Virus record (IMG/VR): IMGVR_UViG_2563366960_000002 | Reading direction: 5' to 3' (one strand) | DNA length: 64,000 nt | Source: a virus | Taxonomy: Duplodnaviria; Heunggongvirae; Uroviricota; Caudoviricetes | Shown: in pieces, positions 38,943-57,963 of the stretch | How positions within the stretch are numbered: the stretch's first letter is position 1 | Layout: every line of letters starts with the position of its first letter | Program-made: the position numbers and the translations under genes | Notes under the pieces: model-generated | The model's database searches: none | What the model saw: only the letters and a program-made list of their open reading frames with translations | Told to the model about the DNA's origin: nothing

Positions 38943-39160
38943 AAACCCCCCTGAACGTCGGCAGAGAAGGGGAGGCTCCAGTAACTAAGTGAATTGCGCG
39001 AGTCAGTTGAAAAACGGGCAGTAAAAATGCAGGGGCCATCAGGCAATTGAGAGCGTGCTTCGTCTTCTGTTGCTGCGATAACGAAGTGATAGTGACGTTT
39101 TTGGCAGGAGTAAAAGCGCCAGATAAATTCAGGATGAGTTTGGGTAGGGGTAGTAGCCAC
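38939..39160 (-). CDS. icd: Icd-like cell-division inhibitor
   Basis: 73-aa ORF (the size I recall for P1 Icd), GTG start with AGGAGG RBS, overlapping the ant start. Confidence 0.5.
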   Translation of the reverse strand: MATTPTQTHPEFIWRFYSCQKRHYHFVIAATEDEARSQLPDGPCIFTARFSTDSRNSLSYWSLPFSADVQGGL

Positions 39161-39342: not shown

Positions 39343-39420
39343 CACAAAAAAGACGCTTTTGGCGTCTGTGTCGCCTTTTGCATTATCCGGGGTTCCAATC
39401 CCGGCATCCGTTTTACTAAG
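39343..39420 (-). ncRNA. candidate c4-type antisense regulatory RNA with intrinsic terminator
   Basis: On the - strand: hairpin GCCGGGATTGGAACCCCGG, then GACGCCAAAAGCGTC followed by TTTTTT, between the Op51-like operator and icd; boundaries not resolved. Confidence 0.3.
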
Positions 39421-39493
39421 ATGCCTGTTTAGGATAAACCGAAAATGCATTAGCACGCAAGAAAGTTAATGTAGCATATGAAGCTAAAAAAAC

Positions 39494-39510
39494 AAAATAA
39501 TTAGAGCAAT
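39494..39510 (-). promoter_or_regulatory. C1 operator (Op51-like) at the immI promoter
   Basis: Reverse complement ATTGCTCTAATTATTTT. Confidence 0.55.
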
Positions 39511-39656
39511 TTGCAACCGTGCGAATTATTTCTCAGGTAACTAAAATACATAACTTTAATTGATATAGATCAAAGATTTTGACCATTGCATGGTGAAACT
39601 TTGTGCTACAAAATGTTATTTTAAGGCGTTTTATCTGTGACAGGAGATAGTTAATC

Positions 39657-40007
39657 ATGTCATCTGAACATGTTCGTAAAGGTGTAACAAATGCGAAATT
39701 CAATGAAGAGCAATCTAATATTCTCTTTATTGAAATAGGAATTCTGTCAATACTGATAGGTTTAATATCTAAATCATGGTGGGCTTTTGGCGGTTCTTTT
39801 CTTGGACTGATTTTTAGTTTAAGAATAAAATTTCTGGCAATTCCATTGATGATTGTTTTTAGCTTAGTATGGGGAGCTATTGGCTATAGTATTGGTACTT
39901 TGTTTGAATCAACAGCAGCAAGTATTGTTTTGGGGGTAATTGCTTTCCTGAGTGGCTTGGGGACTCATTTTGCTGCCGTGCAATGGGCAAATGATATTGC
40001 AGAATAA
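39657..40007 (+). CDS. small four-helix membrane protein (cargo cassette gene 1)
   Basis: 116 aa; AGGAG RBS; four hydrophobic segments; AT-rich codon usage. Confidence 0.5.
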   Translation: MSSEHVRKGVTNAKFNEEQSNILFIEIGILSILIGLISKSWWAFGGSFLGLIFSLRIKFLAIPLMIVFSLVWGAIGYSIGTLFESTAASIVLGVIAFLSGLGTHFAAVQWANDIAE

Positions 40008-40029
40008 TTACAGATAAGAAGCGAAAATA

Positions 40030-40506
40030 ATGAATATGAGATTGTTTTTATTGTTTGTATCGTTAATTTCAGCAGGAGCATTTGCAAAAATTGATCCTCT
40101 ACAATGGAATGTGATTGAAGAGAGAGGGGGGAGAGAATATACAATCCATAATCATAATGGTGATAAGATAAGTTTTTTATGTGATATGGGATTCATGTAT
40201 GGTTCACCAGATAGTGCAGGTAGTTTAGGCTTGTTGCTAAGTTCGTCGAATAATAAAAAGGAGTATAATGCTGACAAGAATAAAATAGTATTAACTATAG
40301 ATGGTGAGCAATACCCTTTTAGCAATCTTGGGTCAATGGTTGGAGATTCTTGGTGGTATGCCTTTTGGCAAGATGCAGCAGATTCAAGTGCTAATATGAT
40401 TGATGCTTATGTTGATGATGAAAAAATTGCTACATTCCCTCTTTCTGGGCTAAGTAAGTTGTATCAACAAGCCAAAATGGATGGATGCATTAAACGAGGA
40501 AAATGA
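40030..40506 (+). CDS. secreted/periplasmic protein (cargo cassette gene 2)
   Basis: 158 aa; signal peptide MNMRLFLLFVSLISAGAFA; hydrophilic mature part with two Cys. Confidence 0.5.
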   Translation: MNMRLFLLFVSLISAGAFAKIDPLQWNVIEERGGREYTIHNHNGDKISFLCDMGFMYGSPDSAGSLGLLLSSSNNKKEYNADKNKIVLTIDGEQYPFSNLGSMVGDSWWYAFWQDAADSSANMIDAYVDDEKIATFPLSGLSKLYQQAKMDGCIKRGK

Positions 40507-40547
40507 TCTTTCTGTGTTAAAGATTAACGCAATCAATAAAACATTGG

Positions 40548-41615
40548 TTGCGTAATATTCTATTATATAAATGGAATAATATGACAAAAATTACTAATTC
40601 TAATGAGTTGGAGTTACTGTACAAACAGTCAGTAATCATTCCATCATACAAAGATCACGTAGCGATCTTGCAAAAACAATTAGGAATAGAAAAACATTCT
40701 TTTCAAAATATGACAAGATTGAATAGACAAGCTGTAATTAGTAACGCTCTTCGAAAACAATTGGCTAGTATGCCGAACTTGGCTGGAATAGGCAGCAAGT
40801 ATCGTGAACATATCGCGATTTTACAGAAACAGACACAGGCTCTTTTCCCTCATAACGCAAATAGATATATTCAAATGCTAAGGAAACAGGCAGAAATAGC
40901 TATGCCATTACGAAACCAGCTTGAGATGCTTAATAAGCAAGCTGGTTTAAATAACATGCAAGCGATACTTAAAGAATTACAACAAAGTGCAAGTTATAAA
41001 ATAGATGTAAGCCAAGACATAAAGAAAGTACTAGATCATTATGCTAGAACAAGAAATGCTTCATTACATCAAATAATAGAGCAGGGGCTTTCATCTATTG
41101 CGCAGGCTTATGCTGAAGGTGCTACTGAAACATCACACACCAAAAGTGATGTCCAAAACAAAGGATTAAATAAATCTAATTCAACGTTTGTTGATTCATT
41201 TAAAGAGCTTCCTTATCCGCTGCAATGGTTACTAATGGTTATATTTTCTCAAGTTGTGTTTGGTGCCTTTATTGATTACGGAAAGGAGAAAACCTTATTG
41301 GGAATACACGAGGCAGAATCATACCTTATATCTCTGTTTGAGGATAAACCAATATCAAAACAACAATTAATTAAAGAAAACAAAAAAATTAGTTGGGAAG
41401 ATCTCAATGGTTTTCGTTTTATAACTGGTGAGAACGTAAGATTACACGTCAGTCCTTCTGTAAATAGTGAAGTGATTGAATGCATTGCCAAAAACACAAT
41501 CGTTGCTATTTTAGATAAAAAAGATCGACAATGGCTTTTCGTGCAGGTTAAATCAGGGGACGAGTTTATTACTGGATGGATTACACGAACATATACAAAG
41601 CCTCTTAAGGCTTGA
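40548..41615 (+). CDS. single-pass membrane protein with KQ-rich helical repeats and C-terminal SH3b-like domain (cargo cassette gene 3)
   Basis: 355 aa; repeats HVAILQKQ/HIAILQKQ/IQMLRKQ/LEMLNKQ; TM segment WLLMVIFSQVVFGAFIDYG; C-terminus VRLHVSPSVNSEVI...GWITRTY. Confidence 0.5.
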   Translation: MRNILLYKWNNMTKITNSNELELLYKQSVIIPSYKDHVAILQKQLGIEKHSFQNMTRLNRQAVISNALRKQLASMPNLAGIGSKYREHIAILQKQTQALFPHNANRYIQMLRKQAEIAMPLRNQLEMLNKQAGLNNMQAILKELQQSASYKIDVSQDIKKVLDHYARTRNASLHQIIEQGLSSIAQAYAEGATETSHTKSDVQNKGLNKSNSTFVDSFKELPYPLQWLLMVIFSQVVFGAFIDYGKEKTLLGIHEAESYLISLFEDKPISKQQLIKENKKISWEDLNGFRFITGENVRLHVSPSVNSEVIECIAKNTIVAILDKKDRQWLFVQVKSGDEFITGWITRTYTKPLKA

Positions 41616-41714
41616 ATTTTATCTCCGTACCTTGGGGCTGGGTGTTGATGATGCTACTTGAAGCACTTGAGTTGTTTTAACGTAGTATCTGAAATGTGTA
41701 GACTGACCGGTAAC

Positions 41715-41740: not shown

Positions 41741-42331
<591 letters not shown>

Positions 42332-53960: not shown

Positions 53961-53988
53961 GAGAAGGCCCGCTATCGGGCCTTAATTT

Positions 53989-56165: not shown

Positions 56166-56175
56166 TTTAGGATTG
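56150..56175. other. cix-type Cin recombination site (right)
   Basis: TTCTCTTAAACC-AA-GGTTTAGGATTG, abutting the cin stop codon. Confidence 0.5.
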
Positions 56176-56727
56176 AAATGATGACGCAGGAAACTTTTTA
56201 TAAAGCGTGGAAACAGCAACATCATAGATGATTGCAACCTGCTTACGGGGGATGCCATTCTCCAGCAATCGACGCATTTGCTGCCATGTTTCTTCTTGGT
56301 ATTTAGGCCGACGGCCTCCTATTCGACCTTCTGCGCGAGCTGCATCAAGTCCAGCGCGTGTACGTTCAACGATAAGCTCGCGTTCCATTTCAGCCAGCGC
56401 CCCCATTACGTGAAAGAAAAAACGCCCCATTGGTGTACTGGTGTCGATAGAGTCAGTGAGACTCCGGAAATTAATTCCTCTGTCACGCAGCTCTTCCACC
56501 AGCACAACCAAGTGACGCATGCTGCGCCCAAGACGATCTAACTTCCATACGACCAGGGTGTCACCTCTGGAAAGCATACGCAAAACCTTTTTTAGCCCAG
56601 GGCGTTCAGTCTTTTTGCCGCTCGCCTTATCCTCAAAAATTAGCTCACATCCTGCGCTTTCAAGGGCATTTCGTTGCAAAGCAGTGTTTTGTTCATTTGT
56701 TGATACGCGTACATAGCCGATCAGCAT
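56167..56727 (-). CDS. cin: Cin site-specific DNA invertase (serine recombinase, Hin/Gin/Cin family)
   Basis: 186 aa; N-terminal GYVRVSTNEQ with catalytic Ser; C-terminal helix-turn-helix; adjacent to a cix site. Confidence 0.9.
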   Translation of the reverse strand: MLIGYVRVSTNEQNTALQRNALESAGCELIFEDKASGKKTERPGLKKVLRMLSRGDTLVVWKLDRLGRSMRHLVVLVEELRDRGINFRSLTDSIDTSTPMGRFFFHVMGALAEMERELIVERTRAGLDAARAEGRIGGRRPKYQEETWQQMRRLLENGIPRKQVAIIYDVAVSTLYKKFPASSFQS

Positions 56728-56848
56728 GATTTTTACTCTAATGCGTTGTTCTTATGAGTCTGCGAATTTTAAAGAACAAAGCGTTATGCACAGAAATAAC
56801 AATCTGAATAGGTTCCTGCTTGATTTTTGTTAGATCCGGGAGGAGCTT

Positions 56849-57133
56849 ATGCAGATTTTGATTTTTTTAATGTCCATTATTAGTGGAACCTATTTATTTC
56901 TTACTGGAGTTAGGCGTGGAGCTTATAAGCCATGTTTTTTACATTGGCTTGAAGCATGGCTGCTTGCCATAAAAGGTGGTTTTGTTGGTTTTTGTCTTGC
57001 AGAAGTTCAGTGGGGAAACTCATTTTTGAATGTGGTTGCTTTTTTGATATGTAGTTGGAATAGCCATTTTGTATTAAGAATAACCAAAATATGGGTTTTT
57101 CACTTGATTTACGAATGTATTGGCAAATTATGA
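56849..57133 (+). CDS. small hydrophobic protein encoded in an AT-rich insert
   Basis: 94 aa; strong RBS GGGAGGAG; two to three hydrophobic helices; composition clearly more AT-rich than flanking backbone. Confidence 0.4.
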   Translation: MQILIFLMSIISGTYLFLTGVRRGAYKPCFLHWLEAWLLAIKGGFVGFCLAEVQWGNSFLNVVAFLICSWNSHFVLRITKIWVFHLIYECIGKL

Positions 57134-57146
57134 ACAACCAGATGAG

Positions 57147-57165
57147 AAGTTACTTTGCATACCAT
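57147..57165 (+). promoter_or_regulatory. P1-type late promoter of the lyd-dar operon
   Basis: Palindromic AAGTTACTT, 4 nt, then TACCAT. Confidence 0.5.
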
Positions 57166-57193
57166 TACCTCCTGACAACGTAGGAGGGAACTT

Positions 57194-57523
57194 GTGCTTG
57201 ACACACAGGAATTAGCTCCAGTTGCTATTGCGCTCCTGCTTTCAGTAATTGGTGGGATAGGCACGTTCCTGATGGATGTCCGAGACGGTCGCCAGTCTGG
57301 CAATTTGTTGGGATTGGTTACGGAGATCTTTGTTGCAGTGACAGCTGGCGCGGTGGCGTACCTATTGGGGCAACACGAGGGCTGGGAGTTATCAATTACG
57401 TACTTAATGGTAACGATAGCCAGCAATAACGGTCATGAGGTGATTTCAGGGATGAAACGAGTGAATATCGATAGCATTCTGAATGTTCTTACAAGTTTGG
57501 TGAAAAAGGGAGGCGGGAAATGA
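57194..57523 (+). CDS. lydA: holin (P1 LydA-like)
   Basis: 109-aa membrane protein with hydrophobic helices and a charged C-terminus. Confidence 0.6.
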   Translation: MLDTQELAPVAIALLLSVIGGIGTFLMDVRDGRQSGNLLGLVTEIFVAVTAGAVAYLLGQHEGWELSITYLMVTIASNNGHEVISGMKRVNIDSILNVLTSLVKKGGGK

Positions 57524-57963
57524 TTGGCTGGGGTGTATGCGTTCTTGCGTTAGCCTTAGCCGATCGCTATTTGCTAAAACGCAAGGACATCACGCATTTA
57601 GAACTTGGTGATGTGGAAATTAAACCGGGTTTCATCCGGGTGCCGTTCAAATACCGGTCTAAATTCCCGTTTTTGCGCGGCGCAACGGTCAGATATTGGA
57701 TCCGCGATGTTCAGAAGCCGACGACAGTGATTGAAGGCGAACAACGTTGTCTGACGTCAGCTGAACAGGGCGAAAACAGTGAATGGTTGTACATACCCAC
57801 TGAATATATGGGTAAAGGAGAGCGACTGTGGCATTTCAACGTCATGGTTACGCATGGCGACTCGTTCATTAACCCGTTGTATCGGATTTTCCCTGTTACT
57901 CAGCAAATCCGCAGAAGTTACGTAATAAATCTCGCACAGGATGTGTCAGATGACGAAAAATAA
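57520..57963 (+). CDS. lydB: holin antagonist (P1 LydB-like)
   Basis: 147 aa, translationally coupled to the holin-like gene. Confidence 0.5.
   Translation: MIGWGVCVLALALADRYLLKRKDITHLELGDVEIKPGFIRVPFKYRSKFPFLRGATVRYWIRDVQKPTTVIEGEQRCLTSAEQGENSEWLYIPTEYMGKGERLWHFNVMVTHGDSFINPLYRIFPVTQQIRRSYVINLAQDVSDDEK

Follow-up and report, generated by a model that had tools for sequence, protein, structure and literature searches.

Among the lysis proteins of phage P1, LydA has been assigned the role of main holin, LydD that of pinholin and LydC that of an accessory canonical holin (Bednarek et al. 2022, PMC9025707). Cloned P1 lydC was found, like lydA, to be lethal or growth-arresting, and a frameshift in lydC delayed lysis in both E. 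coli and E. cloacae (PMC9025707). A P1 lydA lydD double mutant formed no plaques, LydC alone being insufficient for lysis, and when lyz of P1 was replaced by lambda R, lysis of E. coli came slightly earlier without lydC, an effect that the authors took as a sign of a possible role in timing (PMC9025707). Knock-down of P1 lydC by CRISPRi resulted in an EOP of 1.1, the gene being non-essential (PMC10695390). Eight hypervariable regions have been described for P1-like phage-plasmids, of which the stretch lydC-cin-Sv'-U'-U-S is variable region 3 (PMC9603915). No experiments on the P7 allele of lydC were found in the literature searched.

The small hydrophobic gene located between cin and the late dar promoter in the stretch of viral DNA analysed here (64 kb, referred to as the window) is lydC, which is already annotated in P1 and P7, and the allele carried is the strongly diverged, rare P7 version. 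Comparison of positions 56600-57300 with phage records using megablast gave full-length matches of 99.6-99.7% identity to P7 and RCS47 (701 bp), in the records of which the ORF is labelled lydC or LydC, "lysis determinant C; putative holin". The protein encoded by the window was identical to P7 LydC at 93 of 94 residues, with N61 here and D61 in P7, and the N61 form was also present in three E. coli records. The P1 record has at the same slot a lydC of 93 aa with the label "holin by homology; 30 pct identical to LydA", so the premise of the preliminary description that P1 lacks a gene at this position has to be withdrawn. P7 and RCS47 cover 88% of the window between positions 39001 and 64000 at approximately 97% identity, and the window as a whole is a mosaic P1/P7-like phage-plasmid. 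We consider it probable that the product of this P7-type lydC is a small protein of the inner membrane belonging to the LydA/LydC family (PHROG 1527; PF16083, "holin superfamily III", in Pfam), with accessory holin as its most likely function. That the P7 allele would act in the same manner as P1 LydC, to which it is 25-30% identical, is inferred from homology and conserved position.

The features of the locus are collected in Table 1. The same preliminary description, made from the letters of the sequence, had placed a 94-aa ORF between cin and a late promoter, within an AT-rich interval and behind one of the strongest Shine-Dalgarno matches of the window, and all of these points were confirmed. 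The GC content of positions 56728-57140 was 0.346 compared to a window mean of 0.475 (SD 0.043, 413-bp windows), with equally low values found for just 1.8% of 413-bp windows, nearly all of them in one other block at 39.4-41.2 kb; that of the lydC ORF alone was 0.337. The Shine-Dalgarno sequence GGGAGGAG has 5 nt between the end of its GGAGG core and the ATG, and this 8-mer was found to occur a single time in the 64-kb window when both strands are counted, with five occurrences of GGAGGAG on the plus strand. The -22 box of LPdar is one of four exact plus-strand copies of AAGTTACTT in the window, this one being that of the P7 and P1 annotation, and the whole stretch of the promoter is 100% conserved in the alignment of the window with P7 and P1. 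A 75-aa ORF with a TTG start was also observed antisense to lydC (56910-57137, minus strand); it is without supporting evidence and probably just reflects the AT-richness of the region.

Table 1. Features of the cin-lydB locus, with positions given in the 64-kb window.
Feature	Position	Strand	Description and basis
cin, DNA invertase gene (left conserved flank)	56167..56727; start codon 56725-56727	-	186-aa ORF; annotated cin in P7 and P1
AT-rich, diverged cassette between cin and LPdar, P7 type (holds lydC and the region upstream of cin)	56728..57141		Alignment against P7, RCS47 and P1
Op(lydC), predicted C1 operator, TTTACTCTAATGCGTTG	56732..56748	+	Position transferred from P7 annotation; weakly supported
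TAAAAT, matching the -10 hexamer of the predicted P1cin promoter of P1	56766..56771	-	Identical in window, P7 and P1
Shine-Dalgarno sequence of lydC, GGGAGGAG	56838-56845	+	Read directly
lydC (P7 allele)	56849..57133, stop codon counted	+	94-aa ORF, ATG start; LydA-family holin-like membrane protein
LPdar late promoter	57147..57165; -22 box AAGTTACTT 57147-57155, -10 TACCAT 57160-57165	+	P7 and P1 annotation
lydA, main holin (right conserved flank)	57194..57523	+	109-aa ORF, identical to P7 LydA
lydB, LydA antagonist (context)	57520..57963	+	147-aa ORF; annotated lydB in P7 and P1

The boundaries of the cassette were determined with a three-way DNA alignment of the window, P7 and P1. Identity between the window and P1 was 93.8% over the left flank of 128 bp of cin (56600-56727), up to the cin start codon, and 99.4% over the right flank from the LPdar box onward, compared to 47.6% for the cassette DNA enclosed by them. 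Divergence from P1 was found to begin directly past the cin start codon and to stop just short of GAGAAGTTACTT. The two cassettes have lengths of 414 bp here and 424 bp in P1 and GC contents of 0.348 and 0.387 respectively, with values of 0.46-0.50 for the flanks, and the LydC proteins that they encode share 25-30% identity. With the same cin start on the left, the same LPdar -22 box on the right and a comparable length of cassette, the gene is positionally orthologous to P1 lydC. As P1 possesses a homologous, strongly diverged cassette of similar length, the cassette is, relative to P1, an allelic replacement with sharp boundaries and not the insert for which it had been taken; solely relative to D6, where cin abuts lydA, is there an extra gene.

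Within the otherwise diverged cassettes of P1 and P7, a conserved island with the sequence CTGCGAATTTTAA... was identified at positions 56760-56781. The -10 hexamer of P1cin is annotated in P1 at 1667-1672 of the P1 locus extract (alignment columns 167-172), and the overlap of the island with this predicted cin element suggests that the expression signals of cin are under constraint.

Regarding distribution, the P7-type cassette was found in 20 plasmid records, all of them full-length and at least 97.6% identical, and in 28 of 5,426 complete E. coli genomes (29 E. coli records, again all full-length). The P1-type cassette together with its blastn-detectable relatives was found in 378 plasmid records, with identity to the P1 type of at least 95% (n = 172), 90-95% (n = 50) or 60-80% (n = 154). 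Representatives of the other lydC classes shared 63-90% identity with P1 LydC and 24-28% with the P7 type. The lydC slot is multi-allelic, being occupied by no fewer than four allele classes, of which the P7 type is the rare outlier. Comparison of the cin-lydA interval of P1 and its relatives, which had been proposed as a check on the ORF, showed it to be full-length wherever the cassette is present, while the gene was absent from D6 (cin being followed directly by lydA) and from Ro157c2YLVW (cin also being missing), making lydC an optional gene of the lineage.

Two further findings on lydC cassettes drew attention. The cassette of the window, at 100% identity and inclusive of N61, was observed twice in E. 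coli strain 06-00048, on the chromosome (NZ_CP015229.1, 1910053-1910466) and on a 136-kb plasmid record of the same strain (NZ_CP012497.1, 16662-17075); this could mean either that a P1-like prophage has integrated or that the two assemblies differ. On pCREC20_3 (NZ_CP107058.1, extracted locus 1-374), a gene for an IS2-family transposase adjoins the lydC cassette in the usual place of cin, a junction that suggests an IS insertion or a deletion.

The rarity of the P7-type allele and the optional nature of the gene raise the question of whether it is a decaying, functionally irrelevant relic left in a recombination hot spot. Such a reading would accommodate the very low GC content of the ORF, the lack of a detectable promoter upstream of it, its non-essential status in P1 (PMC10695390) and its being missing from D6 and Ro157c2YLVW. 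It would also accommodate the coding changes found within the lineage (N61D, I81V, C29Y, L16F and R23C), all of which are non-synonymous, being too few to distinguish from neutrality. The dN/dS ratio in the P7 lineage is not meaningful, just two coding differences being present at the DNA level. Against this, the cassette is full-length in 20/20 plasmids and 29/29 E. coli records having the P7 type, the ORF thus being intact in every record found, and the sole indel seen, the loss of FVG in P0002, keeps the reading frame. When variation was compared between the main P7-type lineage and the sublineage of CP037905 and CP051361, the 285-bp ORF was found to have one difference and the 121 bp of upstream non-coding DNA 7-8 differences, the ORF being significantly less variable (1/285 vs 7/121, Fisher p = 0.001). 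The near-consensus Shine-Dalgarno sequence is also retained, with the variant GGGAGGAA of CP037905/CP051361 keeping the GGAGG core, and the signature residues of the family (see below) are kept despite an identity of 25-30%. We accordingly regard decay as very unlikely.

Membership of the holin family is supported by profile comparisons. The protein of the window matched PHROG 1527 ("holin") with an E value of 2e-35, residues 1-92 aligning with profile positions 7-98 of 106, and full-length matches to the same PHROG were obtained for P1 LydC (5.5e-39) and LydA (4e-49). BLASTP with P1 LydC gave 30% identity over 73 aa (E 5e-11), while the alignment of the P7-type profile with a profile of P1-type LydC alleles and LydA using hhalign gave a probability of 97.3% (E 2e-11, 75 columns). 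Among ten sequences comprising all LydC alleles and LydA, six residues were invariant (G13, L18, A40, I67, S69 and N71) and a further eight nearly so (S9, G20, Y26, G44, G47, A51, E52 and L60), and the family signature of two N-terminal helices and an I-x-S-x-N motif was present in the window protein. These PHROG 1527 and hhalign results support its homology to the LydA/LydC holins, as judged from sequence.

Other searches were less sensitive to this allele. No match was obtained in a Pfam scan even at E <= 1, including PF16083, and no NCBIfam model was matched at the same cut-off. The gathering threshold of PF16083 is 28.4 bits, which is narrowly passed by P1 LydC (30.4) and LydA (30.1), with the window LydC falling below it; as this model is barely sensitive even for its founding members, the failure weakens the Pfam label and not the homology. 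Pairwise BLASTP between the window LydC and LydA gave no match, their identity being approximately 19-24%. That neither Pfam nor NCBIfam models recognise the P7 allele explains the labels in RefSeq, where LydC of the P7 type is always a "hypothetical protein" and P1-type alleles are a "phage holin family protein". Furthermore, a word-indexed search of 5.8 billion proteins returned three clusters only, all at least 94% identical, and an exhaustive phmmer search of 1.84 billion representatives returned only its own cluster and one protein of 894 aa. The latter had no aligned stretch and was taken as a compositional artefact. A deeper family could not be built from the P7 type alone with this phmmer search, and at the level of single sequences the protein is nearly an orphan. 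Pfam, NCBIfam and the RefSeq PGAP annotation all miss the P7 allele, for which LydC/LydA-family holin-like protein would be a safe annotation.

The membrane character of the protein is consistent with this assignment. Its GRAVY is 0.95, and Kyte-Doolittle maxima over 19 residues were found at residues 3-21 (2.09), 33-51 (1.42), 58-76 (1.46) and 74-92 (1.25). The two to three transmembrane helices of the preliminary description are a fair account of what are two clear and two weaker hydrophobic segments. At 94 aa, and with hydrophobic segments by Kyte-Doolittle hydropathy, the protein lies within the bounds of a small holin (<150 aa, at least one TM segment). The segments at 3-21 and 33-51 are common to LydA and P1 LydC, while the additional C-terminal maxima at 58-76 and 74-92 are lacking in both. 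The last 18 residues, RITKIWVFHLIYECIGKL, are hydrophobic with four charged residues and a net charge of +2, in contrast to the clearly hydrophilic tails of LydA and P1 LydC. A low-confidence AF2 model built from a 4-sequence alignment placed helices at 2-22, 30-53, 57-70 and 75-92; with a mean pLDDT of 58.9, it was too poor for a fold search.

This C-terminus may count against the accessory-holin assignment, the last third of the protein being hydrophobic instead of forming the hydrophilic charged tail typical of holins; a second point is that the functional data were obtained with the P1 allele, which is 25-30% identical. The negative Pfam, NCBIfam and LydA BLASTP results, the exclusively non-synonymous coding changes and the lack of the gene in D6 and Ro157c2YLVW also speak against it, as do the missing promoter and late box and the weak C1 operator described below. 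Instead of forming holes, the protein may be a modulator of lysis timing, antiholin-like or a partner of the holin, that would insert in the membrane, form hetero-oligomers with LydA or LydD and so tune or delay their triggering. The extra C-terminal hydrophobic segments in the absence of a strongly charged tail would suit such a role, as would the paralogy of LydC to LydA, which fits with hetero-oligomerisation. The slight acceleration of lysis upon loss of lydC in the P1 lambda R-for-lyz background and the insufficiency of LydC for lysis in the P1 lydA lydD double mutant point in the same direction (PMC9025707). However, cloned P1 lydC is lethal by itself and its loss delays lysis of otherwise wild-type P1 (PMC9025707), and a dedicated antagonist, LydB, is already encoded downstream. 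A modulator of this type is for these reasons a possible but rather unlikely alternative.

It may also be, and we hold this tentatively at best, that the P7-type LydC is more than a diverged counterpart of P1 LydC and has a lysis function of its own, with three to four membrane segments in place of two and no charged tail, and that its cassette is under diversifying selection. If this were true, a different topology or role would be expected, for example that of a timing modulator directed at LydA or of a host-specific holin, and the sharp-edged, multi-allelic cassette would be host-adapted in the manner of tail-fibre and immunity modules.

The accessory holin remains the reading that we favour, and the surroundings of the gene conform to what is known of holin genes, with lydA located 60 bp past the lydC stop codon and followed by lydB. 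The gene directly precedes the late dar operon, in which lydA comes first and the antagonist lydB next. In the mechanism proposed, LydC would build up in the cytoplasmic membrane as lytic growth proceeds and oligomerise there, and these oligomers would help to permeabilise or depolarise it. In concert with LydA, LydB and the pinholin LydD, LydC would thereby determine when the cell wall is destroyed by the SAR endolysin Lyz. LydC would be dispensable for plaque formation, serving to sharpen the timing of lysis, possibly in a host-dependent manner.

The signals that would control transcription of lydC were also analysed. The P7 record assigns the gene a C1 operator, Op(lydC), with an early promoter assumed. 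On comparison with the C1 consensus ATTGCTCTAATAAATTT, this site was found to have mismatches at 6 of 17 positions, a match that 130 sites in the window equal. A C1-operator PWM, built from nine clear operators of the window, gave it a score of 6.6 as against 21-27 for those nine operators. In the CP037905/CP051361 sublineage its core reads CTCCTAT instead of CTCTAAT. Neither a standard scan nor one relaxed to >= 7/12 revealed a sigma-70-like promoter on the plus strand ahead of lydC. The near-consensus operator overlapping a sigma-70 promoter that is characteristic of a C1-repressed early operon thus appears to be lacking at lydC, and the assumption of a C1 operator and early promoter in the P7 record is not supported by the sequence statistics.

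Nine matches to the C1 operator with at most 3 mismatches were observed in the window (at 1378, 3469, 3518, 7142, 17809, 17820, 21342, 37811 and 39494), where 0.26 would be expected by chance, and include an overlapping divergent pair at 17809-17836. In contrast to the weak Op(lydC), these are the real immunity-controlled sites of the window.

Transcription from the late tail-fibre operon was considered as a further source of lydC mRNA. A terminator-like hairpin, composed of an 8-bp stem with 6 GC pairs followed by a T-run, was identified at 53964-53983 on the plus strand, inside the invertible C segment. In this orientation it probably ends late tail-fibre transcription before cin and lydC, and with so strong a hairpin in between, read-through of the operon into lydC was judged unlikely. 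No late-promoter box was found between the tail-fibre operon and LPdar. Between lydC and LPdar/lydA no terminator was present, and any lydC transcript would likely continue into lydA-lydB. A search of positions 56500-57400 against Rfam revealed no known RNA element, with one sub-threshold chance match to PK-PYVV (20.5 bits against a gathering score of 65).

The location of the ORF outside the late operon, and the doubtful C1 operator, on account of which repression in the lysogen is not assured, bear on another possible function. The preliminary description had suggested a superinfection-exclusion factor, an abortive-infection toxin or a holin-like modulator, the last of which comes close to what is known of P1 lydC. 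According to the first two suggestions, the prophage would use a promoter independent of C1 to express the ORF in the lysogen as a protective factor, acting by superinfection exclusion or as an abortive-infection toxin. A small hydrophobic protein in an AT-rich, hypervariable and horizontally exchanged cassette (PMC9603915) would be in keeping with this. However, no promoter was found for such expression, and a search of PADLOC-DB, which covers described systems only, returned 0 families at E <= 1, leaving exclusion and abortive infection without support. The homology to holins is also clear, lydA and lydB are adjacent, and the P1 orthologue is toxic when expressed and has its mutant phenotype in lysis (PMC9025707). 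A role in defence is, in our estimation, the least probable of the functions considered.

The other block of low GC content, positions 39400-41650, was also noted. Its GC content of 0.31-0.34 is the lowest of any block in the window, and it has three ORFs on the plus strand (39657-40007, 40030-40506 and 40548-41615) whose only matches are to PHROG families of unknown function (15014, 3429 and 7086). A PmgC-like gene (41765-42331) follows shortly downstream of these ORFs, and a good C1 operator (39494-39510, 2 mismatches) lies ahead of them. The position of the block resembles that of the sim region on the P1 map. The sim region is another of the hypervariable regions of P1-like phage-plasmids (PMC9603915).

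With lydC having figured for two decades in the annotation of both P7 and P1, and its P1 orthologue already characterised, the gene itself holds little value as a discovery. What remains of interest is the extreme divergence of the P7 allele between near-identical flanks, its invisibility to standard HMM annotation and the weak basis for its control by C1. P7-type lydC also offers a convenient natural allele swap with which the tuning of lysis timing by an accessory holin could be tested across hosts.

Among known systems, the closest to the gene of the window is lydC of P7 (AF503408, AAQ07503.1) and that of RCS47 ("putative lysis determinant LydC"), this being the same gene with the same position, upstream region, Shine-Dalgarno sequence and LPdar. 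Its difference from P7 LydC is confined to the single substitution at residue 61, aspartate being found in P7 and in most other carriers. P1 LydC (AAQ14002.1) shares with it the slot, the PHROG family, the two N-terminal hydrophobic segments, the signature residues, an AT-rich cassette and a near-equal length (93 vs 94 aa). P1 LydC differs in passing PF16083 and in possessing a hydrophilic C-terminus, whereas the window LydC fails PF16083 and has a hydrophobic one. LydA, the main holin of P1 and P7 (Pfam PF16083, Phage_holin_3_3), is a paralogue encoded downstream and belongs to the same PHROG, but is a protein of 109 aa that is extended at the N-terminus and has a KKGGGK tail, and is expressed from LPdar, upstream of which lydC is situated. 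The lydC alleles of other P1-like phage-plasmids, such as pSJ_98 and p50579417_1, fall relative to P1 into classes of approximately 91% and 77-79% DNA identity, and occupy the same hypervariable slot between conserved flanks. Unlike the P7 type, these alleles are recognised as a "phage holin family protein".
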